IMG/VR virus record: IMGVR_UViG_3300017766_000396
Coordinates: 1 to 36,152 of that record
Origin: a virus
Taxonomy: Duplodnaviria; Caudoviricetes
Length of the DNA: 36,152 nt
Strand: one strand, 5' to 3'
The position numbers were made by a program, and so were the translations under genes. Positions 1 to 36,152 of the stretch are shown piece by piece. Under the pieces are notes generated by a model, which saw only the letters and a program-made list of their open reading frames with translations, did no database searches and had not been told where the DNA came from. Positions within the stretch are counted from its first letter, which is position 1. The number at the start of each line of letters is the position of its first letter.

Positions 1-123
1 CCATTGCATAGATTTGGTCACTTAATAATTTATGGACAGAATCTTTAATAGATGTCTGAAACTCTCGAGCACAAAGGATACGAGTAGGTCGCATAGCCGC
101 AATAATAAGCAAAGCCCTAGCAA
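1..123. repeat. Terminal direct repeat, copy 1 (circular assembly overlap)
   Basis: CCATTGCATAG...GCCCTAGCAA at 1-123 is identical to 36030-36152 and lies inside terL. Confidence 0.97.
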
Positions 124-256
124 TGCCCCAAGACTTAGCACCACCACGACCGCCATACAAAACCTTGTAACGAGCAGGGTCAAAAAGGATGGATAACTTT
201 TCAGGAAACTCAACCTTGGAGACAAGTTCCTTGAGCTCATTATTGGGCTGTGTCAT
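1..256 (-). CDS. terL: Terminase large subunit, N-terminal part (continues across the origin into 36029..34999; 428 aa in total)
   Basis: Hand translation from ATG at 256 gives MTQPNNELKELVSKVEFPEKLSILFDPARYKVLYGGRGGAKSWGIARALLIIAAMRPTRILCARE. It carries the Walker A GGRGGAKS and joins the 34999..36141 ORF in frame. Not in the ORF track. Confidence 0.93.
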   Translation of the reverse strand, partial: MTQPNNELKELVSKVEFPEKLSILFDPARYKVLYGGRGGAKSWGIARALLIIAAMRPTRILCAREFQTSIKDSVHKLLSDQIYAM

Positions 257-653
257 TAGGCTTTACAAAAGTTACTTGAATACCAGTTAATTCCTTGCCT
301 TCAGGACCACTAAGTTCTTGTTTGACTGTTTCAGACCACTTCATTTGGCTCTTAGTCCACCAAATCATGGCTGTAGTATCACCAGCCATAGCTTTTTGGA
401 ATAAACCACGACCAACTTGTGCATTAGCCTTGGCTTTGCCTTTAATAAGCTCATCGCCAAAATGCCGCCTTAAAGTAGCCAAACTAATGCCAGTTCTAAT
501 AACAGCACATATTTGTTCAAATGGAAGCCCATAACCACTTAATAACTCAACTTGGGCTTTTTCATCTTCAGTAGGCACAAATGGCTCACGACCCGCATTT
601 TCACGAGCTCCGCCCCATTCCCCCTTTTCTACCATATCTTTTTCAAGTTGCAT
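240..653 (-). CDS. terS: Terminase small subunit
   Basis: WGGARENAGR N-terminus, HTH-like segment and ELSGPEGK C-terminal motif; overlaps the terL start by 17 nt. Confidence 0.8.
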   Translation of the reverse strand: MQLEKDMVEKGEWGGARENAGREPFVPTEDEKAQVELLSGYGLPFEQICAVIRTGISLATLRRHFGDELIKGKAKANAQVGRGLFQKAMAGDTTAMIWWTKSQMKWSETVKQELSGPEGKELTGIQVTFVKPNDTAQ

Positions 654-1521
654 TTTTTAACATTTCCTTTAATTCTTCGCTTTTTACTTCAGGTTTGACT
701 TGAACAAGTTTAATTTCATAACTATTTTCCTTGATTTTGTCCCAGTCTATATCCTTTCGCCTTATTAGTTTGGCATCAAACTTTTTCCAAGCATCTTTAA
801 TAATATGTTGTGGTCTATCAAACCTACGATTAACAGTAACAACTCCAGGCCATAGTCTTTCCAATGATCTAGCCATTTTTAATCTGCCATCACCTTTGTA
901 CAAGACTTCAGCATTACCACCTTTCATGGTCATGGTAGCCATTTTGTCTATTAAGAATACATTAAACAAAACTGTACATAAGCCGCCACTTAGTACCTGT
1001 AAGCATAGATCAGTATCTTCGTTGTATCTACCTCGCCAACGATAGTCTATGTCATTCTGTATGCATAAACAGCTATAAACATGGACATTTAAGTTAAATG
1101 GTGGCTTTTTGCCTACAGCAAAGAATGTGTAATTTAAGCCGCCTATGGCTATATTTTCATAACGATTAATAAAATCTTCTGATGCTTTTAAAGCTATATT
1201 GGTATTACAGCGTATTCTTTTGCCTTTATGCAACCTACGAACCATATTGATATTGTCATCAAATATCCAATGTCTAGCGTAGCCAGCGGCTTTAGAGTGT
1301 TCCCATACCCAATTTCTAGCTGGAATACTACCTAAACCTAAGTTTTGAAATGGTAAGACTAATATCCTTTCCACCCCATAGATATCCGCATAAAGCTGTT
1401 TTTCTTGTGGTTCTACAACTATCTTAAAATCCACCCCATCTTCTACAAAGAAATTAGCTGTTAAACAACAGTCGTGCCTACCTTTGGATATTATGTAAAT
1501 AGGATATTCAGGCTTATTCAT
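643..1521 (-). CDS. GT-A fold glycosyltransferase, TET-associated (TAGT)/GREB1-like family
   Basis: Motifs YPIYIISKGR, ARNWVWEHS, HWIFDDNI (DxD-like), RYNEDTDLCLQVL and TMTMKGGN are typical of this family. Confidence 0.78.
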   Translation of the reverse strand: MNKPEYPIYIISKGRHDCCLTANFFVEDGVDFKIVVEPQEKQLYADIYGVERILVLPFQNLGLGSIPARNWVWEHSKAAGYARHWIFDDNINMVRRLHKGKRIRCNTNIALKASEDFINRYENIAIGGLNYTFFAVGKKPPFNLNVHVYSCLCIQNDIDYRWRGRYNEDTDLCLQVLSGGLCTVLFNVFLIDKMATMTMKGGNAEVLYKGDGRLKMARSLERLWPGVVTVNRRFDRPQHIIKDAWKKFDAKLIRRKDIDWDKIKENSYEIKLVQVKPEVKSEELKEMLKNAT

Positions 1522-2167
1522 ACTTTACTGAGGAAATATCTTCATTTTCCCGAGGTGGCCACCAGCAAGACCAAGTTGTGCCGCCATCTTTACCCATTTT
1601 TAATTTGGATAAGGATGCAAACTGCTCTCTATCTTCTTCAGACCTGAATTGAATGGCAATCTTAATTGGATCTTCTTTGGCTTGATAGTCAGGCATGCCC
1701 ACCCATTCAGCCGCTTCATTGATATTTGCTATTTCTTTGCCATGTCTTGTAACCATAACCAAGTTAGCAAGCATCATTTCATCGTAGCCAGTGCCCAATA
1801 GACCATCTATATCGTCATCCTTGACCTTTTTAAGGATTTCCGATAGTGACCTATCATCTATTTCAGCTAATCGCCCTACCTCGTTATCACCAGCCAAGAT
1901 TTTTAATGCTTGTGGGCTTTCAGGATCAATATCAAGCTTAATAATGCTAATTTCAGTCATACCAAGCTTTTTAGCGGCTTTAATAATGCCATGACCAGCC
2001 AAAATAGTATTATCTTGCGCCACCACAATGTTTTTATAAAACCCATTTTGCTTAATACTTTGCATTAAATGGGCTATTTGGTCATCATGATGCTCTCGAT
2101 AGTTTCTATCGTGATTTTTTAAAGTGTCTATTTTGACAATTTGCGAAGCATTAACCTTGGCTTTCAT
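1514..2167 (-). CDS. ParB/Srx N-terminal domain protein fused to a small C-terminal domain
   Basis: NYREH..QIAHLMQSIKQNGF..IVV...ILAGHG..AAKKLG...GDN is the ParB-N pattern; probable start is ATG 2167 (MKAKVN), overlapping the upstream small ORF. Confidence 0.82.
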   Translation of the reverse strand: MKAKVNASQIVKIDTLKNHDRNYREHHDDQIAHLMQSIKQNGFYKNIVVAQDNTILAGHGIIKAAKKLGMTEISIIKLDIDPESPQALKILAGDNEVGRLAEIDDRSLSEILKKVKDDDIDGLLGTGYDEMMLANLVMVTRHGKEIANINEAAEWVGMPDYQAKEDPIKIAIQFRSEEDREQFASLSKLKMGKDGGTTWSCWWPPRENEDISSVKYE

Positions 2168-3271: not shown

Positions 3272-3508
3272 TTACTTCTGACCAGCATCTTCCTTGGCAT
3301 AAGCAGTACGCTTGTGCTCATAGCAAACACCAGCAGTACGACCAGTATTGAACAGCTTGTCAGATCCAACTGCATCTTCCATACCCATTGCAACACCACC
3401 TTTTAATGGCTCATGACGCTCACCTTTTGTATCAGCGGCATCAGCGCCTTTAGGCATTACACCACCTGTACGCAAAGGAATACCTTTGCTTGAATCCATC
3501 TTACCCAT
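3272..3508 (-). CDS. Hypothetical protein (78 aa), first gene of the packaging-associated operon
   Basis: Start at MGKMDSSK (3508), preceded by AAAGGA and downstream of the promoter at 3556-3583. Confidence 0.75.
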   Translation of the reverse strand: MGKMDSSKGIPLRTGGVMPKGADAADTKGERHEPLKGGVAMGMEDAVGSDKLFNTGRTAGVCYEHKRTAYAKEDAGQK

Positions 3509-3555
3509 AACATTTCCTTTTTTAGCTAAAAAGACTGCAAAAGCGCAGTTTCTTA

Positions 3556-3583
3556 ATTTTATGGTGATTTTAAGCCATGTCAA
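3556..3583 (-). promoter_or_regulatory. Sigma70-type promoter for the GroES/ParB/GT/terminase operon
   Basis: TTGACA-16 nt-TAAAAT on the minus strand, followed by a short leader hairpin (ACTGC/GCAGT). Confidence 0.6.
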
Positions 3584-3857
3584 GCATTTTAATAAGCCTT
3601 ATTGCGGCATCTACAGAATCAACTCTGCTTACCGCACCTCCTCGCCAATCTTGCATAAATTTAATTTGTGGTTCTGTAAAGGTGGCTTTGGTATCACGCT
3701 TAATTTCCACGAGGACAGACTTTCCCTTGTATCCGACAAGCAAATCAGGACAACCACGACCAACAGTTGAAAGATTAAGAACAGAAGCACCCAACGCAAT
3801 AAAGGTATGAATAAGCTGCTTTTGGTTTTCATCAACCCTCTTTTTGTAGTAAGTCAT
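3570..3857 (-). CDS. PD-(D/E)XK endonuclease (VRR-NUC/resolvase-like)
   Basis: VDENQ...GCPDLLVGYKG..VLVEIK...TEPQ..F...W.G. Confidence 0.8.
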   Translation of the reverse strand: MTYYKKRVDENQKQLIHTFIALGASVLNLSTVGRGCPDLLVGYKGKSVLVEIKRDTKATFTEPQIKFMQDWRGGAVSRVDSVDAAIRLIKMLDMA

Positions 3858-4119
3858 TTGTTTTTTCTACTAATTCCTCAGGGCTTATTCCCCAATAAGA
3901 TGTAAATCCTTTAGCCCCAAGTGCGTGATAACTGGAATTTCCAAGTCTATGGTGGTAAGCGCATAAGGGGACTGCAGGCGCAAGCGAACGCTTGCCTCCG
4001 TACCTTCGAATGTGGTGAATTTCCACTTCTGTATCGGTGTCGGTAATACCTTTTTGCCTGCACAATATGCAGCCCAGTCGTGCCAGTTTTGCATAATGTT
4101 CTCTTTCAGCTTTAGTCAT
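3832..4119 (-). CDS. HNH-type zinc nuclease (Ref/DUF968-like)
   Basis: GCILC...EIHHIR...PLCAYHHR...H. Confidence 0.75.
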   Translation of the reverse strand: MTKAEREHYAKLARLGCILCRQKGITDTDTEVEIHHIRRYGGKRSLAPAVPLCAYHHRLGNSSYHALGAKGFTSYWGISPEELVEKTNDLLQKEG

Positions 4120-4597
4120 CTAACCAGTCTTTTTCCTTTGGTGCGCACGTATTGTCATTTAAAGCATATTGTGGAACCCAAAACTGTGGATTTCGCCCAA
4201 TTTGCTTAACTTTCCAATATTCTTGCTTTTTAGCATCTTTACCCATTATCCAGCCACGAATTGTATAAGTTCCAAGCATTCCAGTTAAAAGATAATACTT
4301 TCGTTCATCTTTGTCCCAAGTGTGCATTTCAAGGTCGCCATCTTCATAATGAGTGCATCTTACATCCACATCATCAACATCAGCACCACCTTTTACGCCT
4401 TTTGACCAAAATTTGTTTAAATGTTTGGCTAAAGCGGCTTCAGCCAATGCACCTTTAACCATTCTGCCAAATAAATCATGCTGTGGCTCACCCGACCTAC
4501 TCCATAAATCATTGTTTTTTATGTTTTCTATGGCTCTTTGACAGCCAATTAAAGATGCCATTTGTATTTCAGCAGGAGTTAAACTAATTATGGTCAT
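4112..4597 (-). CDS. Hypothetical protein, possible PD-(D/E)XK-fold nuclease
   Basis: GALAEAALAKHL...ADVDDVDVRCT...IRGWIMG pattern; coupled to its neighbours. Confidence 0.55.
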   Translation of the reverse strand: MTIISLTPAEIQMASLIGCQRAIENIKNNDLWSRSGEPQHDLFGRMVKGALAEAALAKHLNKFWSKGVKGGADVDDVDVRCTHYEDGDLEMHTWDKDERKYYLLTGMLGTYTIRGWIMGKDAKKQEYWKVKQIGRNPQFWVPQYALNDNTCAPKEKDWLDD

Positions 4598-4742
4598 GGG
4601 CTATATCCTCTAGCTTTAAAGCATTTTCTACCAAAGCATTAGCAAATTTAATGGCATTTTCTTTATCTTGAGCCACCATTGCGTTGTAATAGGCTTGCAA
4701 TAGGTTTTTTACATTTAAATAAGGTTGGCTAAAGTCTTTCAT
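4584..4742 (-). CDS. Small hypothetical protein (52 aa)
   Basis: MKDFSQPYLNVKNLLQAYYNAMVAQDKENAIKFANALVENALKLEDIAHDHN fills the gap between track ORFs and abuts the upstream stop. Confidence 0.7.
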   Translation of the reverse strand: MKDFSQPYLNVKNLLQAYYNAMVAQDKENAIKFANALVENALKLEDIAHDHN

Positions 4743-5078
4743 TTACATATTTCCTTGTCTGCGGTTTGAAGATAAAGTGCGCCAAATATCAATAATGCGC
4801 ATTTCGTGGTTTCTTTGGTTATCCAAAGTTTTAAAGTTTTTAAAAGCATCAGCGTAAGCCTTAACAGCTTCTTCGTATTTAACGCTTGATAAAGCCTTTG
4901 CTTCTCTTTCTGCTACGGTTCCTTCGGCTAACAGGAAAGAATGGCTTTTAGCCTGTTTTAAGCCTTCCTCAAGGTATTTAACTTGACCAGCCCATGCTGC
5001 ATGGCTTTCATCAGTACTTGATAGCTTAATTAATGCTTCTTCTACACGATTTTCAGTTAATTGTTCCAAATTCATCAC
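4743..5078 (-). CDS. Helical/coiled-coil hypothetical protein
   Basis: Intact ORF in the operon; TVAEREAKA and IDIWRTLSSNRR segments. Confidence 0.75.
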   Translation of the reverse strand: MMNLEQLTENRVEEALIKLSSTDESHAAWAGQVKYLEEGLKQAKSHSFLLAEGTVAEREAKALSSVKYEEAVKAYADAFKNFKTLDNQRNHEMRIIDIWRTLSSNRRQGNM

Positions 5079-5296
5079 TTCCTCCAGTCATTTGCACTTC
5101 CCCGATTACCTTTACGCCATTGGTCATTAAAATCTTTTTCAATTTTGTGCCATCTTTTGTAAAGACCTGTATCTACTACCCACTTCCTAAAACCTTGTAA
5201 TCCGTGTTCTTGCCTAGCTTTTAAGCAATAACGCACATCACATTGATGCCTAAATTCTTCGCTATGCAACCAGTTTTCGCTTTTCACGTTGAGCAA
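5075..5296 (-). CDS. Hypothetical protein
   Basis: SEEFRHQCDVRY...QWRKGNRG..DWR; overlaps both neighbours; start uncertain. Confidence 0.65.
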   Translation of the reverse strand: MLNVKSENWLHSEEFRHQCDVRYCLKARQEHGLQGFRKWVVDTGLYKRWHKIEKDFNDQWRKGNRGSANDWRK

Positions 5297-6038
5297 TCAC
5301 AAAGTTTTTCATTTCCCAATATGAGTTAAACCTAGATTTAGCAGGATCACCACATTCAGCCCTATATGCAGCTTCTATTTGTTGATCGTTGCCTAAAGGC
5401 AGCTCCTTAGCCTTTTCAACCTCGGTAATAATCCAATCGGCTTTAAACCCACTCCAACCACGCTCACAACAAAGTTCCATGACAGATTGAAGTGACATAT
5501 TAGCTTTTGCTGCTTCACGCTGTAAGCCTTTTAAAACAGTTTCTGTAATGGGTGCTTTTTTCTTTTCCCTTAACTTTTTATAATCCTGAAAAACAGAATC
5601 CAAAACTCCGTTAGGAGTAATAGTCTTTATTATTGGTTTATGGTTATTGGTTATTGGTTTATGGTTAGCATTGCGTTCGGTATGCGGTTTTAATGCGAAC
5701 GCATCAGAACCCTTATCTTTATTGCCCCAGCGAGCCAATGCAGAAGCCCTAGCTTTGTCAGATTTACCATGATATTGAGCAATGGTTTCATCGCATCGTT
5801 TGTGTACATACCCTTTTTTGGTTAATTCAAAGAAGTCTGCAAGCACATTTTTAAGCGCAAGTTCTTCATCCGCATTGCGAATGCTATGCGACCGCATAAC
5901 CTTAGATATGTCACTAGGTAATGGTTTTTCATCCAAATAATAGCTATCCAAAAGTTGCCGATAAATACCATGCTCTAACAAACTCAGATGAGAAGTATCT
6001 TTTCGATAATCCGCTATATTATGTTGGTAATAGTGCAT
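5262..6038 (-). CDS. Replication initiator, YdaU/DUF1376 family
   Basis: MHYYQHNIADYRKDTSHLSLLEHGIYRQLLDSYY N-terminus; follows cro as lambda O does; internal iteron-like repeats. Confidence 0.82.
   Translation of the reverse strand: MHYYQHNIADYRKDTSHLSLLEHGIYRQLLDSYYLDEKPLPSDISKVMRSHSIRNADEELALKNVLADFFELTKKGYVHKRCDETIAQYHGKSDKARASALARWGNKDKGSDAFALKPHTERNANHKPITNNHKPIIKTITPNGVLDSVFQDYKKLREKKKAPITETVLKGLQREAAKANMSLQSVMELCCERGWSGFKADWIITEVEKAKELPLGNDQQIEAAYRAECGDPAKSRFNSYWEMKNFVIAQREKRKLVA
5631..5705. repeat. Iteron-like repeats, candidate replication origin inside the initiator gene
   Basis: Five TGGTT units at ~7-nt period (5631-5667), then three TGCG units at 11-nt period. Confidence 0.55.
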
Positions 6039-6039
6039 T

Positions 6040-6243
6040 TCAGTCCTTTGTAAAAAGGTCAGGTCGTGCCATATAACGATTAAACTTACCCTGAGTTGCA
6101 TCCTCCAGTTTTTTTAAGTATTTAACAGGAATGCCTTTAGCCCTTTCCCATCTATAGAATGTGGCTGGCTGTACACCTAGTAAGTTAGCAGCTTCTATAG
6201 CACCACCATATTCCGCCTTTAATTCATTTAAAAATAAGTTCAT
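6040..6243 (-). CDS. cro: Cro-like HTH regulator
   Basis: GGAIEAANLLGVQPATFYRW...IP......LEDAT.GK.....ARPDLF is the Cro/YdaS pattern; strong AAGGAGG RBS. Confidence 0.85.
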   Translation of the reverse strand: MNLFLNELKAEYGGAIEAANLLGVQPATFYRWERAKGIPVKYLKKLEDATQGKFNRYMARPDLFTKD

Positions 6244-6284
6244 AAAACCTCCTTAGGTAGAACTATATACCAAAACTAAATAAA

Positions 6285-6381
6285 AATTAAAAATATTTAA
6301 AAAAATTGTTTACTTTTGCTTAGATAGGTTTATATTGCTTATGTAGTCTAATTTTTTACAACAAATTGATGAAGGGAATTA
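6285..6381 (+). promoter_or_regulatory. Early promoter/leader module, copy 1
   Basis: AT-rich divergent intergenic region; blocks AATTAAAAATATTTAAAAAAA, TGCTTATGT and TGATGAAGGGAATTA are shared with 7388-7478. Confidence 0.6.
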
Positions 6382-6384
6382 CAA

Positions 6385-7347
6385 ATGGCACATGATTTAA
6401 CACAACGCATTGATGGTACTTACGAAATGGCTTTTGTTGGTGAAACGCCTTGGCATGGTCTTGGTCAAGAACTAGAACAAGGTGCATCTTTTGACCAATG
6501 GCAAAAAGCGGCTGGCATGGACTGGTCTATACATACAAGTCCTGTTATGTACGAAACAGGAAATTGCAATCGTGAAATAGAAACATTAACTTTTACAGGA
6601 CAAAATGTCTTGTATCGCTCGGACAATAACGAACCTTTATCAGTAGTTACCAATAGATATAAACCTGTCCAGCCTGTTGAGGTTTTACATTTTTTTAAGT
6701 CATTGGTAGATGAAAACGGCTTTAAATTACATACTGCTGGCACTTTAAAAGGTGGTCGCAGAATGTGGGCATTGGCTGAAACAGGCAATTTTGGTGAAGT
6801 TACGGCTGACGACAAAGTTGGTGGTTATTTACTTTTATCCACAAGCTGTGACAGAACTTTAGCCACAACTGCTAGATTTACCTCCATTCGTGTGGTTTGC
6901 AATAACACCCTAACAATGGCTGTTGGTGAAAATGCTAATACTGTGTCATTTAGCCACATACAAAAGTTTGACCACGAAAAAGTTAAAGCCAAGCTTGGTA
7001 ATGCTGTAGGGGCTTTTGGTGCATTTATTGACATGGGTAAATACCTACAAAAACAACAAATGAATGTCCATGCATCTAGCCAATTCTTACTAAATCTTTT
7101 ACGGCAGGATGATCAACCAAATGAATTGGTTTTGGCTGGCAAAAACTTTAATAAGATTTTGTCATTATTTGAAACCGAATCTAAAGGCAATGATTTAGTT
7201 GGTCATACCAAATGGGGAATGCTTAATGCGGTTACAGAATATGTAGACCACTTTGCTGGCAATTCTCAAGACAATAGACTTAACAATGCTTGGTTTGGTA
7301 ATGGTGAAAGACTTAAAAATAAAGCTAAAGAATTATTGCTAGCGTAA
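6385..7347 (+). CDS. DUF932 / TIGR03299 phage-plasmid protein
   Basis: MAFVGETPWHGLG, TAGTLKGGRRMWALA, FTSIRVVCNNTL and WGMLNAVTEYVDH motifs. Confidence 0.88.
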   Translation: MAHDLTQRIDGTYEMAFVGETPWHGLGQELEQGASFDQWQKAAGMDWSIHTSPVMYETGNCNREIETLTFTGQNVLYRSDNNEPLSVVTNRYKPVQPVEVLHFFKSLVDENGFKLHTAGTLKGGRRMWALAETGNFGEVTADDKVGGYLLLSTSCDRTLATTARFTSIRVVCNNTLTMAVGENANTVSFSHIQKFDHEKVKAKLGNAVGAFGAFIDMGKYLQKQQMNVHASSQFLLNLLRQDDQPNELVLAGKNFNKILSLFETESKGNDLVGHTKWGMLNAVTEYVDHFAGNSQDNRLNNAWFGNGERLKNKAKELLLA

Positions 7348-7351
7348 GGAT

Positions 7352-7374
7352 AAGGGGCTTGCCCCTTTTCTTTT
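7352..7374 (+). terminator. Intrinsic terminator after the DUF932 gene
   Basis: AAGGGGC-TT-GCCCCTT followed by TTCTTTT. Confidence 0.75.
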
Positions 7375-7387
7375 CACTATGTAAAAT

Positions 7388-7478
7388 AATTAAAAATATT
7401 TAAAAAAAACTGAAAAAACAGTCAAATGCGTGATATTATGCTTATGTGGTCTTTTTTAACAAGTGATGAAGGGAATTA
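7388..7478 (+). promoter_or_regulatory. Early promoter/leader module, copy 2
   Basis: Same three blocks as 6285-6381; the first two are offset by the same 51 nt. Confidence 0.6.
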
Positions 7479-7480
7479 TT

Positions 7481-7675
7481 ATGGTTATCAACAAACTTAA
7501 CTCCTCTACCTATAGGGTAATTCTAGGTTCTGCCGAGGGTCAGACTTACTACATTCAAAAACGCAAAACTGGCACATGGGCTGTAGCTCAAAAAGGTGCA
7601 ATTTTGGACTTTGCTCCAACTCGTGATCAGGCAATCAATGCCGCTGTGTCCATTTTTAAAGGTGTAGCAGCATGA
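7481..7675 (+). CDS. Hypothetical early protein
   Basis: ATG 7481 follows the GAAGGGA leader; MVINKLNSSTYRV... Confidence 0.7.
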   Translation: MVINKLNSSTYRVILGSAEGQTYYIQKRKTGTWAVAQKGAILDFAPTRDQAINAAVSIFKGVAA

Positions 7676-7764
7676 AAAATCTTATTGCAGAACTATCAGT
7701 AATGGTCTTTTTTGGTGTTTTATTTGGCGCAATGTTTGCCTACGGACTTTTAGGAGGATTTTAA
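7672..7764 (+). CDS. 30-aa single-pass membrane peptide
   Basis: MKNLIAELSVMVFFGVLFGAMFAYGLLGGF; ATGA overlap with the upstream stop; not in the track. Confidence 0.65.
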   Translation: MKNLIAELSVMVFFGVLFGAMFAYGLLGGF

Positions 7765-7766
7765 TT

Positions 7767-8060
7767 ATGGGTATGTCTAGACACGATGCTTATTACGAGC
7801 CTGACGATTATGACGACCGCTCAGACGAAATTGACGAGCGCACTTATGAACTAATGAAGGTTGGTGCTAAATACGACTACAAAACGGCTCAAGCAGTTTA
7901 TGAATCTATGGGTGACCTAGATACAGACCAAGCTAATGCTTTGCAAGATGCAATTAATACCAACGATTATGAAATTATTGGCCGCAAAGTAATGATGTTG
8001 GCTATGGAATATATGGAACGCTTTGCCAAAGATGCGGCTGAAGGAGAAATTAATGACTGA
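7767..8060 (+). CDS. Acidic hypothetical protein
   Basis: AGGAGG RBS; intact ORF. Confidence 0.75.
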   Translation: MGMSRHDAYYEPDDYDDRSDEIDERTYELMKVGAKYDYKTAQAVYESMGDLDTDQANALQDAINTNDYEIIGRKVMMLAMEYMERFAKDAAEGEIND

Positions 8061-8268
8061 TGTAGCCAAATTAAGTCATGCTGAAATAGCTTGTTATGAA
8101 ATGTACGACCAAATTGACGAAGTATTTTGCAGTTTGGTTGTATTAAAGGCTTTTTTAAATTCAGACGAATATAACAAATTCCATGCAGTAAGCATGATAG
8201 ATGGGCTGGTTCGCCAGCTTATTAACAACCAATGCGACATGATGCAAACCGCAAAACTTGAATACTAA
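8053..8268 (+). CDS. Hypothetical protein
   Basis: Start at MTDVAK after AAGGAG. Confidence 0.7.
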   Translation: MTDVAKLSHAEIACYEMYDQIDEVFCSLVVLKAFLNSDEYNKFHAVSMIDGLVRQLINNQCDMMQTAKLEY

Positions 8269-8278
8269 GGATAAAGTG

Positions 8279-8818
8279 ATGAAAACTTTTAACGAATTAA
8301 GACTTATTAATGTAAATGAACATACCGAGAAAAAAGGCAAATTTACTTACTTATCTTGGACTTGGGCTGTGGACACTTTATTGCAAAACGACCCATCAGC
8401 CACTTGGACTTTTGGCGACCCTGTTTACTTTAACGAGTCAATTATGGTGTTTTGCACAGTAACTGCTATGGGTAAGTCTATGACTTGTCAAATGCCAGTT
8501 TTAAATAATATGAACAAAGCTATACCTAATCCAAATGCTATGGATGTGAATACAGCCATGATGCGCTGCTTAGTTAAGACTATCAGCTTATTTGGTATTG
8601 GTCTATACATTTACGCTGGCGAGGATTTGCCTGAAGAAGAACCAGTAGACTTAACAGAAGAATCCAATAAATGGATTGAAGCTATAAATCAATGCGAATC
8701 TTTATTACAACTTAAGGAAACCTATGGTAATGCCTATAAAGCCTTGTCCAAAGACAAATCAGCAGTCGAATCCATATCAATCGCCAAAGATGCTCAAAAA
8801 GCCAAACTGGGAACTTAA
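8279..8818 (+). CDS. sak: Single-strand annealing protein, Sak/DUF1071 (Rad52-like)
   Basis: INVNEHTEKKG.FTYLSWTWA...DVNTAMMRCLVK..SLFGIGLYIYAGEDLP; next to an exonuclease. Confidence 0.85.
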   Translation: MKTFNELRLINVNEHTEKKGKFTYLSWTWAVDTLLQNDPSATWTFGDPVYFNESIMVFCTVTAMGKSMTCQMPVLNNMNKAIPNPNAMDVNTAMMRCLVKTISLFGIGLYIYAGEDLPEEEPVDLTEESNKWIEAINQCESLLQLKETYGNAYKALSKDKSAVESISIAKDAQKAKLGT

Positions 8819-8863
8819 AGCCATGTTTGATTCCATTTTAAGAAAAGAAAAAGAGGCTCGTAA

Positions 8864-9526
8864 ATGACTACATTTACCACCGAAGATCGCTTAAATGCGT
8901 ACATAGGCGTTGAACAAGGCTCGGATGAATGGTTACGCATTCGACTTGGCAAAGTGACTGCTAGTGGCGTTGCTGATGTTCTAGCAAGGACCAAAAGCGG
9001 TGTTTCAGCTTCAAGAGGTAATTATCTTATTAAACTGGCTTTGCAACGAGTTACTGGGCAAATTGAAGATGGTTTTACCAGCGATGCTATGCAATGGGGA
9101 ATAGATAATGAAGCCCAAGCTAGAGTAGCTTATGAAGTTAAATCAGGCAATTTTGTAGATCAAATAGCTTTTGTAGACCATCCTACGATTAAATGGTTTG
9201 GGGCTAGTCCTGATGGCATGATTAATCATGATGGCTTGGTGGAAATTAAATGCCCAAATAGCTCTACGCATTGGTCATACATTAAAGCTGGTGAGCCGCC
9301 ACTTAAATATTACATACAAATGCAAGCGCAAATGGCTTGTACAAATAGGGAATGGTGCGATTTTGTATCTTTTGACCCTCGTATGCCTGACAGAAGCAAA
9401 TTATTTGTAAAACGCATTATGCGTAGCAATGACTTTATTTCCGACATGGAAAGTGAAGTTAAAACATTTTTGGATGAAGTGGAAGTAGAAGTAAATCTTA
9501 TGAAAGGCAATGCAAATGGCAATTAA
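8864..9526 (+). CDS. YqaJ/lambda-exonuclease family protein
   Basis: EQGSDEWLRIRLGKVTAS, MQWGIDNE, GASPDG...VEIKCP, QMQAQM, WCDFVSFDPR. Confidence 0.92.
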   Translation: MTTFTTEDRLNAYIGVEQGSDEWLRIRLGKVTASGVADVLARTKSGVSASRGNYLIKLALQRVTGQIEDGFTSDAMQWGIDNEAQARVAYEVKSGNFVDQIAFVDHPTIKWFGASPDGMINHDGLVEIKCPNSSTHWSYIKAGEPPLKYYIQMQAQMACTNREWCDFVSFDPRMPDRSKLFVKRIMRSNDFISDMESEVKTFLDEVEVEVNLMKGNANGN

Positions 9527-9773
9527 ATACTATGTAAAAGCGGCAATTTCGGAATATACAGACCAATCAGGTGCTAATAAAAAGCGTTATCAAACTATTG
9601 GCATTATTACGGAAACCAAAAAGGGCGATTTAATGATGAAATTAGAAATGATTCCATTATTAGGGCTTAAAGAAGGCACTTTATGGGCTTATTTAAATGT
9701 GCCTGAAGATAAACCTGAAGGTAAACAATCTAGCCAATCTTTACAACAAATTGAAGACGATGTTCCATTCTAA
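9516..9773 (+). CDS. Putative ssDNA-binding protein
   Basis: EYTDQSG.NKKRYQTIG beta-rich core and acidic EDDVPF tail; follows sak/exo. Confidence 0.65.
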   Translation: MAIKYYVKAAISEYTDQSGANKKRYQTIGIITETKKGDLMMKLEMIPLLGLKEGTLWAYLNVPEDKPEGKQSSQSLQQIEDDVPF

Positions 9774-9784
9774 GGAGAATTACC

Positions 9785-9916
9785 ATGTTTAAAAAAGCAC
9801 TTGTATCAGCAGCAGTATTTTTTGTAATTGGCTTTGCTTATGCCCAGCAAGCTCAATGCTGGCAGCAATATGTTTGTGGTGGTGGCGGATGCCAATGGGT
9901 AACAATTTGCCGTTAA
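9785..9916 (+). CDS. 43-aa secreted four-cysteine peptide
   Basis: AAGGAG RBS; MFKKALVSAAVFFVIGFAYA signal peptide followed by QQAQCWQQYVCGGGGCQWVTICR; not in the track. Confidence 0.78.
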   Translation: MFKKALVSAAVFFVIGFAYAQQAQCWQQYVCGGGGCQWVTICR

Positions 9917-9933
9917 ATTTTAAGGAGTAAGTG

Positions 9934-10236
9934 ATGAAAAAAGTAATCGGAGCTTTTTTATTGGTTAGCTTGGCAGCTTGTTCAGGGCCAGGAGGAGTTA
10001 AATACAATACTGATGCTGCACCGCAAACGCTTTATATTGATCCTGCTGTGCAAGCTATGTCAAGGTCAGAAACCATTCAAGCCAGCAAAGAATGTGAAGC
10101 TGGCGGAATGCAGCCATTGATTATTTATGGCAAACGAAGAATAGGAAATTCAGCAACAAGTAATGATATTCCTGTGGAAGTTATTTGCACAACTCGCTGG
10201 GACTTGATACAAAGGAGCTATGCAAAGCATGACTAG
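9934..10236 (+). CDS. Lipoprotein
   Basis: AAGGAG RBS; MKKVIGAFLLVSLAAC lipobox (Cys16); two further Cys. Confidence 0.8.
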   Translation: MKKVIGAFLLVSLAACSGPGGVKYNTDAAPQTLYIDPAVQAMSRSETIQASKECEAGGMQPLIIYGKRRIGNSATSNDIPVEVICTTRWDLIQRSYAKHD

Positions 10237-10387
10237 AGAAAAATTGGCTTTTAGCTTGTTAAGGTTAATGATTGCCCATGATTGGAAGTTTGATGTGACT
10301 GAAAAAGATTGGGACAGTCAAGCTGTAGAAAGGGCTTTTAGGATTGCTGACCTATTTATTAAAGAAAGCGAGATTACAAATGTCTAA
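10220..10387 (+). CDS. Small hypothetical protein (55 aa)
   Basis: AAGGAG upstream; MQSMTREKLAFSLLRLMIAHDW...AFRIADLFIKE; alternative start at 10229; not in the track. Confidence 0.7.
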   Translation: MQSMTREKLAFSLLRLMIAHDWKFDVTEKDWDSQAVERAFRIADLFIKESEITNV

Positions 10388-10586
10388 TGACCATATTTGG
10401 ACTAAAGCTGGAACTGATATTACTATTCGATGGAAAATGGAGGGCTGGACTCCTCCATCAGAACAACAGGAATATAAAGACAAGTGGCGATACTTTCAAA
10501 ACTTGCCTTTGCGCCAGTTGGATGATGCTGCAAAACAGCAATATGAAGCAGTATTACGCAAAGCTAAAGTAGCGAGGATTAAATGA
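10380..10586 (+). CDS. Hypothetical protein
   Basis: Start at MSNDHIWTKAGTDI..RW...GWTPPSEQ; overlaps both neighbours. Confidence 0.7.
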   Translation: MSNDHIWTKAGTDITIRWKMEGWTPPSEQQEYKDKWRYFQNLPLRQLDDAAKQQYEAVLRKAKVARIK

Positions 10587-10771
10587 CAGAAGAAAATATA
10601 CCTTTTGCTGGCAACATGAAAGTTCCTTCAGATCCTTGTGAAGAAGCTTTCTTTGCACTTTATCCTGATTTTTTCTATGAAAAATCTACTTCTTTAATGC
10701 TTTGGACTCAAGCCTGGCAAGCAGCATTAGACCATGTAGAAAACAAAAAACCATTGATTCAGCTTATATGA
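10583..10771 (+). CDS. Hypothetical protein, last plus-strand gene
   Basis: ATGA overlap; WTQAWQAAL motif common in small phage proteins. Confidence 0.7.
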   Translation: MTEENIPFAGNMKVPSDPCEEAFFALYPDFFYEKSTSLMLWTQAWQAALDHVENKKPLIQLI

Positions 10772-18203: not shown

Positions 18204-18671
18204 CTAGTGCCTAATTATCGGCTGTTGCAACAATTTAGTAAATACTTTATCCATTGGTTTGCATCCTAAATATTTAAAAATACTAGAATTATCGTAACCA
18301 ACCTTGGTAGCGTATAAAACTAAATCCACTCCAATATCTTTCAAATAATCCTGTGCAAACTTAAACATTTTAATGCCGTTAAATCCTTTTCTGTATTCAG
18401 GCTTTAGGAAATACAAATCCTCATGAGCCGTTAAACAGTTTTTATAATGAATGTGCGGCATTACAAAAAACACTATATAACCCACTAATTCATCACCATC
18501 TTTAGCCGATACAAATACCAGCTTCTTGCTGTTATACAAAGATTCGTATGTGTCGTAATCTATGTCCAAACCAAAATCTTTTAATGTTTCAACTTCTTCA
18601 TAATGCTGACCAATAATTGCCTTAAATTTAGGCAAATTTTCTATCCAATCATCAACTTTGTAAGTAATCAT
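18204..18671 (-). CDS. GNAT-fold acetyltransferase-like protein
   Basis: DGDELVGYIVF...EDLYFLKPEYRKGFNGIKMF (acetyl-CoA-binding motif A). Confidence 0.78.
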   Translation of the reverse strand: MITYKVDDWIENLPKFKAIIGQHYEEVETLKDFGLDIDYDTYESLYNSKKLVFVSAKDGDELVGYIVFFVMPHIHYKNCLTAHEDLYFLKPEYRKGFNGIKMFKFAQDYLKDIGVDLVLYATKVGYDNSSIFKYLGCKPMDKVFTKLLQQPIIRH

Positions 18672-22103: not shown

Positions 22104-22418
22104 CTAAATTTTTACTGTAAATGTAGGCTTAATCCAAGGCTTTTTGATAGTATTTTGCTGATTTAAGCTGGTTAATTGCTTTTCTAAATTACTTTCAATA
22201 ATACAAGATTCATCAATAATTGACTCTTTTTTTATCCAATCAATAATGTCTTTTTCAATGGTCTGATCTATTACTTTGTGGGTTTTATCTTTAAAAAACC
22301 AGTTTCCTTCGGTTGTAACAGAATTAGATTCATCAGAGGCAATTACTCTGTATTTCACTTGAGCTAATGCCTCTGATTCTTCAATTAAATCTAAAATAGA
22401 CCATTTAAAAGCTATCAT
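22104..22418 (-). CDS. Hypothetical tail-associated protein
   Basis: FKWSI.DL...EKDIIDWIK...LEKQL...KPW; coupled to the fibre gene. Confidence 0.7.
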   Translation of the reverse strand: MIAFKWSILDLIEESEALAQVKYRVIASDESNSVTTEGNWFFKDKTHKVIDQTIEKDIIDWIKKESIIDESCIIESNLEKQLTSLNQQNTIKKPWIKPTFTVKI

Positions 22419-23572
22419 CCTGTGTATGTTCCTGAACTTGAATAGACCAATACAGTATTGTCACCAACAGTTGTAATTGTTGGAGAGCCAGTAGTTGTTC
22501 CTGAATAGCTTGCAGTTGGAACAGAAAGGATTACAACACCTGATCCGCCATTGCCAGGATTAGAAGTGCTTTGTGATCCACCGCCTCCTGCTCCACGATT
22601 AGCTGTTCCTGCTGTAGCTGAACCTGAACCTGAAGAACCATTACCACCAATTCCGCTACCGCCTGTACCGCCTACTGGAGTTCCAGGAGAACCAATAGAT
22701 GCTCCACCGCCACCAGCAGCATAATAAAGAACGCTTCCAGTAATATTTGAAGTTAAACCAGCACCTCCGCTACCGCCTGAATAAGAGCCAGCATTACCTC
22801 CGCTACCGCCAGCACCGCCTCCTCCACCAGCAGCAGTATTACCATTTCCGTCTACGAATACGCTAGTTGTTCCTTGTCCGCCACTAAAGCCTTGACCTGA
22901 CACTCCAGCACCGCCAGCAGCACCAGTTCCAGTTCCTGAATTGTCTAAACCGCAACCGCCACCACCTGATCCACCAGCACCGCCAGGACTAGATGCTCCG
23001 CCACCATAACCACCGCCTGAAGCAACCAAAGCAGTAGCAAGACTTGAATTAGAACCAGCACTTCCAGGCTGCCCTGTTCCGTTATTTGCACCACCAGCAC
23101 CAATAGTAATTGTGTAAGAAGTGCCTACAGTTAATGCAACAGTAGATACCAAGAAACCGCCTCCGCCACCGCCACCACCTGAATAATTCCAGCTACCGCC
23201 TGAACCACCGCCAGCAACAGCTAAAGCATAAATGTTGTAGTTTGGAGGAGTTGTAGACGATAATTTTATCCATTGATTTCCTGCATAAGCCTCAATATAG
23301 CCACTTGAATCTGTGTTATATCGAATCATGCCGTTTACAGGGGAAGAAGGTCTTTGAACAGTATTACCTACAGATAGCAAAACTGCACCAGTAGATGTAA
23401 ATGCTCCTTGACCAGTAACAGTTAGATTATTAACAGTTAAGTTATTGCTGCTATCAGTAATTAGCAAAGTACCATTTTCGGCAGGAAGCGTTACAGTTAC
23501 ATCACTTGCTGTATCAGCATTAGTTAATGTGACTGAGCCGCCTGATGGCCCTAAAAATATTAAATCGGACAT
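22415..23572 (-). CDS. Glycine-rich tail-fibre-like protein
   Basis: TLPAENGT, GNTVQRPSSPVNGMIRYNTD and one Gly-rich domain (VAGGGSGG...GGSGVVIL). Confidence 0.75.
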   Translation of the reverse strand: MSDLIFLGPSGGSVTLTNADTASDVTVTLPAENGTLLITDSSNNLTVNNLTVTGQGAFTSTGAVLLSVGNTVQRPSSPVNGMIRYNTDSSGYIEAYAGNQWIKLSSTTPPNYNIYALAVAGGGSGGSWNYSGGGGGGGGFLVSTVALTVGTSYTITIGAGGANNGTGQPGSAGSNSSLATALVASGGGYGGGASSPGGAGGSGGGGCGLDNSGTGTGAAGGAGVSGQGFSGGQGTTSVFVDGNGNTAAGGGGGAGGSGGNAGSYSGGSGGAGLTSNITGSVLYYAAGGGGASIGSPGTPVGGTGGSGIGGNGSSGSGSATAGTANRGAGGGGSQSTSNPGNGGSGVVILSVPTASYSGTTTGSPTITTVGDNTVLVYSSSGTYTG

Positions 23573-23582
23573 AATTTATTCC

Positions 23583-23933
23583 TTAAATAGCAACCCAAGA
23601 TTGTGTAGCTTCATTCCAAGAGTATTGTTTTCCGTCTGTTGGCATAGCTACTGGAGCTACCCAAAGATAACTATCTTGATCTAATGTCCAGCTTGGATAA
23701 GGCTGTGGTGCAGCAAATCCTGTGCCATCGTATGTATAGCCAATTCCAGCATAGTTTTTGTTTAAAGCAACTCCGCCATCAGGCTGACCATCAACACCAT
23801 AATGAACACCGCCTCTAGTGTTATAGCTAGTCTGAACCCATCCATGACCGACAGCACCACTATCAATAAAATCTTGATCGGCTACGATTACTTGGGTTAC
23901 TACTTGATTTTCTATTTTAGCGAAATGTGCCAT
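23583..23933 (-). CDS. Conserved fibre-associated protein (possible chaperone)
   Basis: MAHFAKI...VTQVIV...WVQTSYN...NYAGIGYTYD...PQPYPSW...WVAPVAMP. Confidence 0.75.
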   Translation of the reverse strand: MAHFAKIENQVVTQVIVADQDFIDSGAVGHGWVQTSYNTRGGVHYGVDGQPDGGVALNKNYAGIGYTYDGTGFAAPQPYPSWTLDQDSYLWVAPVAMPTDGKQYSWNEATQSWVAI

Positions 23934-23942
23934 ATTGTTTCC

Positions 23943-25031
23943 TTATCTTGCGTTAGCGTATTTAAATGGGTTTTCAGCAAATGCCATGTATATGTAAGTG
24001 CTTCCGTTTTGGTTGTAATCAGAGCTAGTTGTTCTTAATTTGAAGCCATTTGATAGAGCATCAATATTAATTGTTGTAGCTTCTGCCGAATTACTATTAG
24101 GATACAAAACAGAATTCATAACATTGTAAGTATTTCTTGATGTATCTTGTGTAACCCAATAACTACCAGCAATTGATGAAGATTTAATCATTACAAATTT
24201 AGGTCTAAAACCTGTATATACAAAAGTACCATCAGTAGAGCCATTTCCTGTATAACTATTAAATTGACTAAAGCCAGCTATTTCTGCCCAGCAATAAGCT
24301 ACAGCAGCACTATTAGCAACTAATGTTACATCGCCTCTAATTCCAAATACTGTCGAAGTGGGTAAAGCATCGCCCCAAATTTGACTTAATGTAGTTAAAG
24401 CACTTGTATCATTTAATCTTAAAAACTGGTTTACATTGGTAACAACGGCAGAAGAATAAACAACCCAATTTGATTCTGAGGCTGAATTTTTTACAATTAT
24501 TAATTTAGGTGTAACTCCTAAACCATGACCAACTGTTCCATTGGTATTTACACCAGTAGCTGTAAAGGTAACAATACTAAACCCAGCAGTAGCATTAACA
24601 CTTACTGTGCTTGTTTGAGAACCAGCAGTATTAGTTGATGTAGTGCCTTGTCCAGCTTGCCATTGCCATGCAACATAGGTGTAACCTGATTCGTTTTGCC
24701 AGTAAGCTGGCGCACTACCATTTGCAAGGGTAAAGCCATTGCTATTAAGTGTTGTAATTCCACCTTGAGATGCTGGCAATACTGCACCACCCACATTTTG
24801 TGCGTAAGTAGCATCAGAATAAAGGTTATTGTAATAACCACTTGTCTGCCCACGAACAGAATCGCTAAGAATATTTAAATACCCTGATGCTGGATTTGTT
24901 CTTGATTTAGTCCACACCAAGTCAGGCTTAAATCCGCCAGCATTAACAATGTTTTGCGTAGAACTTGTGCCAGTATAAGTAGTAGCATCCATTACTGTCC
25001 GACCATTAGGAATTGCGTATGTAGTTGGCAT
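23943..25031 (-). CDS. Tail-fibre distal / receptor-binding domain protein
   Basis: Repeated YTG.G, FKPDLVWTKSR, VGHGLGVTPKLIIVK, YTGFRPKFVMIK and YIYMAFAENPFKYANAR. Confidence 0.75.
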   Translation of the reverse strand: MPTTYAIPNGRTVMDATTYTGTSSTQNIVNAGGFKPDLVWTKSRTNPASGYLNILSDSVRGQTSGYYNNLYSDATYAQNVGGAVLPASQGGITTLNSNGFTLANGSAPAYWQNESGYTYVAWQWQAGQGTTSTNTAGSQTSTVSVNATAGFSIVTFTATGVNTNGTVGHGLGVTPKLIIVKNSASESNWVVYSSAVVTNVNQFLRLNDTSALTTLSQIWGDALPTSTVFGIRGDVTLVANSAAVAYCWAEIAGFSQFNSYTGNGSTDGTFVYTGFRPKFVMIKSSSIAGSYWVTQDTSRNTYNVMNSVLYPNSNSAEATTINIDALSNGFKLRTTSSDYNQNGSTYIYMAFAENPFKYANAR

Positions 25032-25035
25032 AGTC

Positions 25036-34998: not shown

Positions 34999-36152
34999 TT
35001 AAGACATCCAACTAGAAACTTGGTAATTTATTTTCTTTGCTGTTTTCTTTTTAGGCTCATTAATCATTAATCCAATGTAACGGAAGGCATCTGCGCCATG
35101 TGAATAATTGTCATGCAAAGGCTTACGACTAAATGCGCCAGTTTCTGGGTCAGTATCATACCTATAATGCCTTAAACATTGTAGTCCTTCATAGCAGTTT
35201 TCTCTATCAAAATAACATTTGCTAAAGATAGTCCTTGCGGCATTAATTGAATCAGCTATAGGTACTCGGTCAATAATTCTGACATTAAAGCCTGCCGCCC
35301 TAACAATATCCTCAATACTTCTACCATGTGCAGCCAAAGTCTTATTTTGAGCATCATGTGGCAAATAAAGTGTTTCATAGACATAACCAAAGGTTTGCAT
35401 TTTGGCTAATATCTCACTCATAGTGGTTTGATTTGTCTCGTAATAGCGTATAAGCCTTGTTTCCATACCTACAAATTGCAGAAACCACACCGCTGTTGCA
35501 TCCGACCAACCAATGTCAAAAATGGCAAGTACAGGCTTGGTGGCATCATAAGGCACTCTAGTAATCCTGCCATCAAATTCGGCTTGTTGCATTTCTTTAG
35601 CAAAAATAGCCCCATCTACAGTTTGGCGACACATTCCTTCCCAAACGGTATTGTAGGATTCTCTATCTCTAGCGTATAAAGCATCCTTTTCAAGCCTTAA
35701 AGTCTCAGGAAACCAAGGATTGTCTTGCCAGTTCACTTTAGCAACCAAGCAATCACTAGGTGGATTGGCTACAAAGCGTTGGTAAGTCTCATCCGTTTCC
35801 AATTCAGGGTTAAAACTAATCCAAATTTCGGACTTTTCTTTACGAATGGTAGGAATAAGCACCGACCAACTTAGTTTTGATGTTGTATTGGCTTCTTCCA
35901 CCCAACATATATCCACACCTTCGTATGACTTAACATTGGCAATATTGTTTTTTAAGCCTACAAATGCGAATTCTGAGCCATTTTTGCCACGAATAGAATT
36001 TTGTGTAATCTCAAAGTGTGCATCAAGTTCCATTGCATAGATTTGGTCACTTAATAATTTATGGACAGAATCTTTAATAGATGTCTGAAACTCTCGAGCA
36101 CAAAGGATACGAGTAGGTCGCATAGCCGCAATAATAAGCAAAGCCCTAGCAA
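34999..36152 (-). CDS. terL: Terminase large subunit (PBSX-family-like), C-terminal part
   Basis: ILCAREFQTSIKDSV, ICWVEEA (Walker B), ISFNP, FDIGWSD and HGADAFRY; the true start is at 256 across the origin. Confidence 0.93.
   Translation of the reverse strand, partial: ARALLIIAAMRPTRILCAREFQTSIKDSVHKLLSDQIYAMELDAHFEITQNSIRGKNGSEFAFVGLKNNIANVKSYEGVDICWVEEANTTSKLSWSVLIPTIRKEKSEIWISFNPELETDETYQRFVANPPSDCLVAKVNWQDNPWFPETLRLEKDALYARDRESYNTVWEGMCRQTVDGAIFAKEMQQAEFDGRITRVPYDATKPVLAIFDIGWSDATAVWFLQFVGMETRLIRYYETNQTTMSEILAKMQTFGYVYETLYLPHDAQNKTLAAHGRSIEDIVRAAGFNVRIIDRVPIADSINAARTIFSKCYFDRENCYEGLQCLRHYRYDTDPETGAFSRKPLHDNYSHGADAFRYIGLMINEPKKKTAKKINYQVSSWMS
36030..36152. repeat. Terminal direct repeat, copy 2
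   Basis: Identical to 1-123. Confidence 0.97.

Follow-up and report, generated by a model that had tools for sequence, protein, structure and literature searches.

The window analyzed here is a stretch of 36,152 nucleotides from a freshwater tailed virus of the Caudoviricetes (positions 1 to 36,152 of IMG/VR virus record IMGVR_UViG_3300017766_000396). Ahead of its small terminase gene, terS, it carries a two-gene cassette composed of a glycosyltransferase (GT) of the TAGT family and a protein in which a ParB N-terminal domain (ParB-N) is joined to a C-terminal domain that we call the WxGMP module. Comparison with relatives shows that the most constant partner of the GT is this module and not ParB itself. 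It is possible, with the balance of judgment leaning slightly the other way, that a widespread clade of TAGT enzymes, defined by a WxGMP module that ParB can carry, adds sugar to canonical DNA in a single step.

The assignment of the GT to the TAGT family, first proposed in a reading of the sequence alone (the original prediction), is well supported. Residues 6-202 match PF20691 along the entire profile (1-205 of 205) at 159.7 bits, against a cut-off of 27.5, and the protein also matches phrog_842 (E=4e-36). A confident model (pLDDT 89, pTM 0.88) has the GT-A fold, and its best named matches in a library of viral structures are TAGT enzymes (TM 0.65-0.76). A sequence search of solved structures returned just two chance matches (E ~0.1), and structural comparison with solved structures gives generic GT-A enzymes only, RmlT and TarP included (TM ~0.4-0.5, Z 12-14, many ties). 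As RmlT and TarP act on ribitol-phosphate polymers, these matches bear on the proposal that the GT modifies a target other than DNA or virion protein, be it a host surface polymer, a defence protein or a small molecule, in the manner of TarP-like receptor masking or anti-defence. We regard this as very unlikely: the likeness is that of any GT-A enzyme, DNA-acting phage GT-As match TarP too (Pyle et al., bioRxiv 10.1101/2023.12.21.572611), the GT model shows no evident membrane segment, and the clade is carried in hosts with very different envelopes.

The catalytic frame of the family, R...DD...ED, is intact in the window GT, with asparagine in place of aspartate at the third position (DDN), and a KGGN motif is present. 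Residues R15, D88, D89, N90, W162, R163, Y166, N167, E168, D169, G201-G202-N203, R236 and H239 are identical in all 30 members aligned, and the stretch W162-R-G-R-Y-N-E168-D169 is specific to the clade. The clade residues on the acceptor side (YN before ED, and DDN) differ from those of TET-adjacent TAGTs and of T6. In a quick tree of 87 rows, a branch with an SH-aLRT support of 97 separates 62 clade GTs from second paralogues, TET-adjacent GTs and T6; 35 main GTs accompanied by ParB-module proteins were sampled, the clade label comes from a score cut and is partly circular, and the T6 branch is very long. Profile comparison of the clade with the T6 TAGT gave a weak match (probability 2%, on the single-sequence side). 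Cultured members, from phages Aeh1 (NP_943971), Kuja and PTm1, are 38-43% identical to the window GT. Carriers of the clade infect unrelated hosts (Aeromonas, Vibrio, Shewanella and Tenacibaculum), and the 25 records matched by the window GT in tblastn include no GT from a mycobacteriophage or other actinobacteriophage. At least 8000 database proteins are related to the GT at E<=0.001, not all of them of the clade, and an estimated ~2800 viral stretches match two clade motifs.

The original prediction took the ParB-like fusion to be the partner of the GT. That fusion is indeed present, but the constant module at its C-terminus had been overlooked. The module spans about 70 residues with the consensus EWxGMP...F...DR..F...SxWxP...D and corresponds to no Pfam or convincing PHROG family; an Atlas search with it finds unnamed viral clusters of 73-78 amino acids, none with a Pfam assignment. 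The monomer model is of low confidence here (pLDDT 46-69 over parts of residues 141-217). By eye, the module may resemble the C-terminal dimerisation domains of ParB proteins. A module profile was built from 27 ParB-fused members, which match it by construction, with stand-alone and GT-fused copies left out of it. With this profile, 136 of 149 loci show a module that shares the strand of the GT and lies no more than 3.5 kb from it, and the pairing takes three architectures: fusion to ParB-N (113 of the 136), a stand-alone gene of 80-100 amino acids (9) and fusion at the N-terminus of the GT itself (8), with the other 6 cut by a contig end. Nine of the 13 loci lacking a module have less than 700 nt of upstream sequence; Vibrio phages 1.076.O and 1.124.O carry an interrupted copy (E ~2e-4 with an earlier profile); P12024L is TET-adjacent and of another clade; and L074, a T4-like relative, is without a module.

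When the 149 loci were collapsed at 85% GT identity, 91 contexts remained, comprising 66 with a ParB-module protein, 8 with the module fused to the GT, 6 with the module alone, 3 cut by a contig end and 8 with none; ParB-N is missing from 14 of the 91. Among the best 150 of 332 database relatives of the module, 61 are ParB-module, 47 ParB-ParB-module, 39 module only (a class that takes in fragments), 2 ParB-module-GT and 1 module-GT. The natural fusions set the module 5-11 residues before the first GT strand, and the N-terminal extension of cultured solitary TAGTs, such as that of Aeh1, is the same module that ends the ParB fusion. Conversely, 97 loci retrieved with two TET queries include 70 with ParB-N and none with the module, and their best GT reaches 100 bits on the clade profile, so that the clade and TET are mutually exclusive in this sample (0 of 97 TET loci with a module or with a GT above 100 bits). 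Two other ParB-module proteins, P0123 and P0219, are extended, as judged by eye, with an S-adenosyl methionine (SAM) methyltransferase and a DXD-type GT, respectively, indicating that the carrier can also be joined to tailoring enzymes.

The ParB portion of the 217-residue fusion is recognized by PF02195 at residues 11-83 (E=4e-6), and its AlphaFold model matches ParB N-domains in Foldseek and contains no helix-turn-helix (HTH) DNA-binding domain. The arginine of the ParB motif is lost, the window sequence reading GHGI, and GHG[VI] occurs in 37 of 62 contexts. This is not the makeup of a canonical partitioning ParB: there is no GxxR arginine, no HTH in the model and, by Pfam, no ParA in the window. 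It is instead the layout of ParB176-type proteins, a ParB N-domain followed by a C-terminal domain with no HTH, encoded beside an enzyme. ParB was also considered as an acceptor-making kinase and rejected, since the motif arginine is lost and the domain is optional.

A 123-nt repeat at the window ends (36030-36152 duplicates 1-123, as a terminal repeat of the assembly) closes it into a circle of 36,029 bp. CheckV estimates the completeness of the record at 55% despite these repeats; the window is nevertheless taken as a complete genome because most of its genes recur in two colinear relatives (36.7 and 34.3 kb) whose completeness is put at 100% and 99%. The 55 open reading frames (ORFs) scanned cover 96.6% of the circle and leave three gaps of 141-239 nt each. 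By Pfam and PHROG, they include no TET/JBP dioxygenase, C5-methyltransferase, thymidylate synthase, nucleotide kinase or polymerase, in agreement with the original prediction, and the hydroxymethylase, kinase and phage polymerase of a T-even-type pathway are accordingly all missing from the window. Six-frame searches of the window with PF12851, PF00303, PF00145, PF04055, PF13640 and the TET protein of a close relative were empty; the PF00303 search recovered T6 gp42 as its positive control. PF12851 found nothing in 35 and in 22 GT-carrying IMG/VR records, nor in 5 cultured clade phages, and did match the control P12024L. Seventeen IMG/VR relatives at least 90% complete give no TET, thymidylate-synthase-like, radical-SAM or PF13640 match, and C5-methyltransferases are found in 2. 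Aeh1 has a canonical thymidylate synthase only, a table in PMC2993671 lists no gene 42 for this phage, and the Kuja genome has one thymidylate-synthase match, annotated thyA. A weak thymidylate-synthase match in Aeh1 was rejected, as it falls inside gp47.

The proposal of a minimal two-gene unit also stands. Sixteen whole relatives were compared, 15 of them rated at least 90% complete and the last, which has terminal repeats, 38%. All 16 have the GT and 15 the ParB protein, no other window gene recurs in more than 3, and the next most shared family overall, a terminase, is found in 8. The lack of a third shared gene makes a hidden common primer improbable, short of one so divergent that BLAST at 1e-5 would miss it. 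This observation bears directly on the quite unlikely alternative that the acceptor is a conventional hydroxylated base, made by the host, by a co-infecting element or by a phage enzyme whose fold escapes recognition. Such a base would preserve the known chemistry of TAGT enzymes, and there are candidates for its source: PTm1, a cultured clade member, has a hydroxymethylase-like gene ~29 kb from its GT; a radical-SAM gene, which may either tailor the sugar or make the acceptor, lies directly downstream of a clade GT in two fragmentary contexts (L125:2662-3765 and L136); several small window ORFs have no family; and for ORF 4112-4597 an Atlas search gives only unnamed and DUF5843 look-alikes and no oxygenase. 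Besides the missing third gene, the unrelated hosts of the carriers speak against a host-made base, and we know of no hydroxymethylated base universal among bacteria. Nor is ParB a good candidate catalyst, because of its frequently lost arginine and its absence from 14 contexts.

What the target may be is suggested by the genomic position of the cassette. The original prediction coupled it to the terminase and placed its action at packaging. Linkage is common, but not obligatory: a large terminase gene (terL) lies no more than 4.5 kb after the cassette in 53 of 84 assessable contexts (within 1 kb in 33 of these), with 4 further probable cases and 27 contexts that lack it, the 84 being the 91 contexts minus 6 that are too short and P12024L. 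Moreover, 51 of 53 close terL relatives of the window have no cassette, and action at packaging is not supported in the form proposed. The terL relatives come from a search with the window gene that covered 26 of 64 parts of the database and gave 80 loci at 70-97% identity, 53 of them with at least 1.5 kb of upstream sequence. In these 53, the slot before terS holds this cassette in 2, a ParB-N6/N4-methyltransferase in 9, a lone methyltransferase in 1, a ParB gene with a GT-like gene and TET/JBP in 1 (L206), LPD/ART-like genes in 17 and none of these in 23. Genes are exchanged at the slot before terS, and the cassette is dispensable for packaging. Because the other ParB cassettes seen in the slot carry DNA-modifying enzymes, DNA is indicated as the target of this one.

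Several occupants of the slot deserve individual description. In L206 (IMGVR_UViG_3300017766_000730, positions 3396-5520; terL 82% identical), the gene between ParB and TET/JBP encodes 237 amino acids, has no Pfam or convincing PHROG family, is GT-like by motifs only and matches the clade profile weakly (probability 0.3%, on the single-sequence side). The idea that the window cassette arose when a cassette like that of L206 recently lost its TET gene was rejected, since the GT and the ParB tail belong to different families in the two. The LPD/ART-like occupants (L209:1071-2099, L217:4534-5559 and others) are genes of 300-350 amino acids with LPD23 or weak ART-PolyVal matches just upstream of terS.

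Proximity to the terminase would also fit a system in which the pair protects DNA ends and not bases, by capping free hydroxyls or phosphates where the terminase has cut, at nicks or in the pac region alone, a reading that we consider improbable. Ends and nicks offer the sole hydroxyls of canonical DNA, TerL lies within 1 kb in the 33 contexts mentioned above, a persistent avoidance of restriction sites (described below) suits a local mark and, in one case, that of Vibrio phage Kuja (L088:4239-6927), a gene annotated as a DNA end protector immediately precedes two module-GT fusions in tandem. The 27 contexts with no terminase within 4.5 kb are difficult to accommodate in such a scheme, however, as are the several unrelated families to which the neighboring terminases belong and the close relatives that package their DNA with no cassette.

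A protein target is somewhat easier to defend, although still unlikely. Here the GT would O-glycosylate a phage protein such as the capsid, the tail or Gly/Ser/Thr-rich fibers, and its place in a late operon would reflect virion assembly. Hydroxyl chemistry of this type requires no primer, several Gly/Ser/Thr-rich virion genes are present in the window, and in Vibrio phage 1.076.O a module-GT fusion lies between the portal and head-morphogenesis genes. GREB1, of the same family, is a protein O-GlcNAc transferase (PMC7968844), and modification of the capsid has been proposed for the GTs of cluster O mycobacteriophages (PMC4351075). No mycobacteriophage GT is found among the 25 records matched by the window GT, however, and the cassette moves among phages that have no structural gene in common with the window while the GT remains 46-91% identical; the ParB helpers and the other modifying enzymes of the slot point to DNA. 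Later proof of virion glycosylation is reportedly due to Freeman (2023).

With these alternatives set out, the reading that we prefer, at a little short of an even chance, is that the module-GT pair performs a post-replicative, sequence-limited addition of sugar to canonical phage DNA, with ParB-N as an optional loader. A mobile two-gene cassette would thus add a sugar straight onto canonical DNA with no prior hydroxymethylation. The acidic module (pI 4.7) would dock on the basic GT (pI 9.2) as an accessory subdomain, as suggested by the natural fusions and their short spacing to the first GT strand. The ParB N-domain would have no catalytic part; like ParB176 with its dioxygenase, it would serve on double-stranded DNA as a loader or activator, one that the system can do without. 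The host would supply an NDP-sugar as donor, and in some relatives an epimerase or a second GT would re-tailor it. The sugar would be accepted by a heteroatom of an ordinary nucleotide, within a limited sequence context; an exocyclic amine is the simplest choice, since that is the group used by the N6/N4 methyltransferases of the same slot. Placement ahead of terS would provide late expression with no obligatory tie to the packaging motor.

A number of observations weigh against this proposal. The most serious is chemical: to our knowledge, all characterized acceptors of the TAGT family are hydroxyls (5hmU, 5hmC, glucose and Ser/Thr), and base amines are poor nucleophiles. GREB1 demonstrates that a member of the family can modify protein. 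Profile searches would overlook a primer with a novel fold, and the C5-methyltransferases of the 2 near-complete relatives, the hydroxymethylase-like gene of PTm1 and the radical-SAM genes of L125 and L136 weigh on the same side. In 17 of 53 relatives, moreover, the slot before terS is taken by genes that are not modifiers. Correlation of sequence identities fails to single out the module (GT-module 0.52, GT-ParB-N 0.47). Finally, many restriction sites have been purged from the genome, which makes a blanket shield of the DNA unlikely. In the window (1-36029), CCGG is absent and ACGT and CGCG occur at 0.05 of expectation; CAGCTG, CCATGG, GGATCC and GTTAAC are absent and CASTG and CCAGA nearly so, a pattern that suggests a host group with many restriction-modification systems. 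Avoidance does not set cassette-bearing relatives apart from cassette-free or TET-bearing ones, and as the TET-bearing L206 purges sites too, it does not separate the rival readings.

Additional genes accompany the cassette in many of its relatives. Sugar-tailoring neighbors include an epimerase in 16 of 90 contexts and a second TAGT in 13 of 90, and further neighbors encode a DXD GT, an FkbM methyltransferase and an RGP mutase. This accessory layout is that of TET-based DNA glycan clusters minus the oxygenase. Ahead of a probable terminase, the region L126:7800-14000 holds four paralogous TAGTs together with an RGP-type sugar mutase and has three matches to ParB-N, and in L074 two TAGTs lie two genes away from the DNA polymerase.

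The remainder of the window encodes a P22-like gene set identified by Pfam and PHROG, with portal, scaffold, coat, head closure, Sak/YqaJ recombination and lysis genes. The features of the locus are collected in the table below. TerL has 428 amino acids, starting at 256 and crossing the origin to 34999 on the minus strand; the ATG of the ParB fusion at 2167 is preceded by a GAGG Shine-Dalgarno sequence and gives a protein equal in length to those of the closest relatives. The head-to-tail overlaps of ParB, GT, terS and terL (8, 11 and 17 nt), which had been offered as a sign of one coupled unit, are real but not special: most genes in the leftward run from 6243 to 240 overlap in the same way, and the overlaps were rejected as evidence of a dedicated unit. 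Elsewhere, genes for a GroES co-chaperonin (2658-2969) and a GNAT acetyltransferase (18204-18671) lie among the virion genes. The interval 6040-10771 contains only a Cro/YdaS-like HTH protein, a DUF1376 replication protein, DUF932, Sak and YqaJ, with no integrase or CI-type repressor recognized by Pfam or PHROG. Several Gly/Ser/Thr-rich fiber-like genes (Gly_rich_2, DUF7483, SPRY) occupy 22415-27960, the two largest of which have no match in the two closest whole genomes.

Table. Coordinates of the cassette and of the terminase genes in the window, with the evidence for each.
Feature	Position	Strand	Evidence
ParB-N + WxGMP module fusion, 217 aa	1514..2167	-	Pfam PF02195, AlphaFold model, Foldseek, alignments
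ParB/Srx-fold N-terminal domain, residues 8-112	1832..2146	-	Pfam/PHROG, AlphaFold model, Foldseek
WxGMP module, residues 150-215	1523..1720	-	Profile and alignment
TAGT-family GT-A glycosyltransferase, 292 aa	643..1521	-	PF20691 E=1.2e-46, alignment, model
Small terminase terS, 137 aa	240..653	-	phrog_309 E=1.2e-13; place before terL
Large terminase terL, 5' part, continues over origin	1..256	-	ORF reading
Large terminase terL, 3' part	34999..36152	-	PF04466

The significance of the clade would lie in a departure from established routes. Published phage DNA glycosylation, as surveyed, needs a hydroxylated base to be made first. In this work one large clade of orphan GTs is delimited, its constant partner domain is named and cultured carriers are identified. 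If the proposal is correct, it would provide a primer-free route to DNA hypermodification, including in cultured phages such as Aeh1 that are assumed to have no major DNA modification, and a single-enzyme tool for the sugar-labelling of ordinary DNA. Whichever acceptor applies, a canonical base, a DNA end or a protein, the chemistry would be new for the TAGT family in phages.

Earlier work provides several points of reference. DNA is the substrate of the characterized TAGTs of phages and kinetoplastids (PMC13216743; Pyle et al., bioRxiv 10.1101/2023.12.21.572611), and the T6-like TAGT adds a second glucose (PMC13390438). About 65% of GT contigs have neither 5mYOX nor ThyS and have been judged less likely to be DNA modifiers (Pyle et al.). 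Solitary TAGTs are already in print: those found without an alpha- or beta-GT, and described as of undefined function, occur in 288 of 753 phage genomes, with Aeh1, Kuja and PTm1 listed among them (PMC13216743). The solitary TAGTs of these three phages fall in the same clade as the window GT; the main text of that study mentions neither ParB nor terminase in their connection, and its supplement does not mention ParB. In the literature searched, we found no description of the WxGMP module and no test of the GT clade. A 2013 proposal, relayed in PMC8256090, is that ParB directs modifying enzymes during packaging.

Against this background, the likenesses of the cassette to known systems are partial. 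With the TAGT family of PF20691, which includes the T2/T6 beta-glucosyl-HMC-alpha-glucosyltransferase, the kinetoplastid JGT and the TET-adjacent phage GT-As, it shares the GT-A fold, R...DD...ED, KGG and accessory genes. The window clade differs in forming a separate branch with invariant DDN and RWxxxYNED motifs, in having no TET or dCMP/dUMP hydroxymethylase in its 17 near-complete carriers and in its WxGMP module, which does not accompany the GTs of the T6 and P12024L loci. GREB1 has a related GT domain and likewise no TET, but it is a eukaryotic protein O-GlcNAc transferase with no ParB or module (PMC7968844). Judged by sequence, the cassette belongs to neither TET- nor hydroxymethylase-based pathways, nor is it strictly a packaging module.

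The closest organizational parallels are other ParB cassettes. A ParB composed of an N-domain and a C-terminal domain, with no HTH, activates a T-dioxygenase on double-stranded DNA (O'Toole et al. PNAS 2026, PMC13229309), and the 5mYOX176/ParB176 cassettes described there have the same ParB N-domain, linker and short C-terminal domain as the window protein and are often near the terminase; in the close relative L206, this slot is occupied by a version with TET. In the window, by contrast, the partner is a glycosyltransferase with no dioxygenase, the ParB motif arginine is lost and the C-terminal domain of the ParB protein is of another family, 70 of 97 TET loci having ParB-N with a KKAIQIEF-type tail. 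The ParB-N6/N4 DNA methyltransferase fusions (PHROG 498, PF02195+PF01555) share the slot before terS and the same ParB-N, and act post-replicatively on canonical DNA with no priming. These fusions transfer a methyl group from SAM within a single chain, whereas the window cassette is predicted to transfer a sugar and has its module and its enzyme on separate chains.

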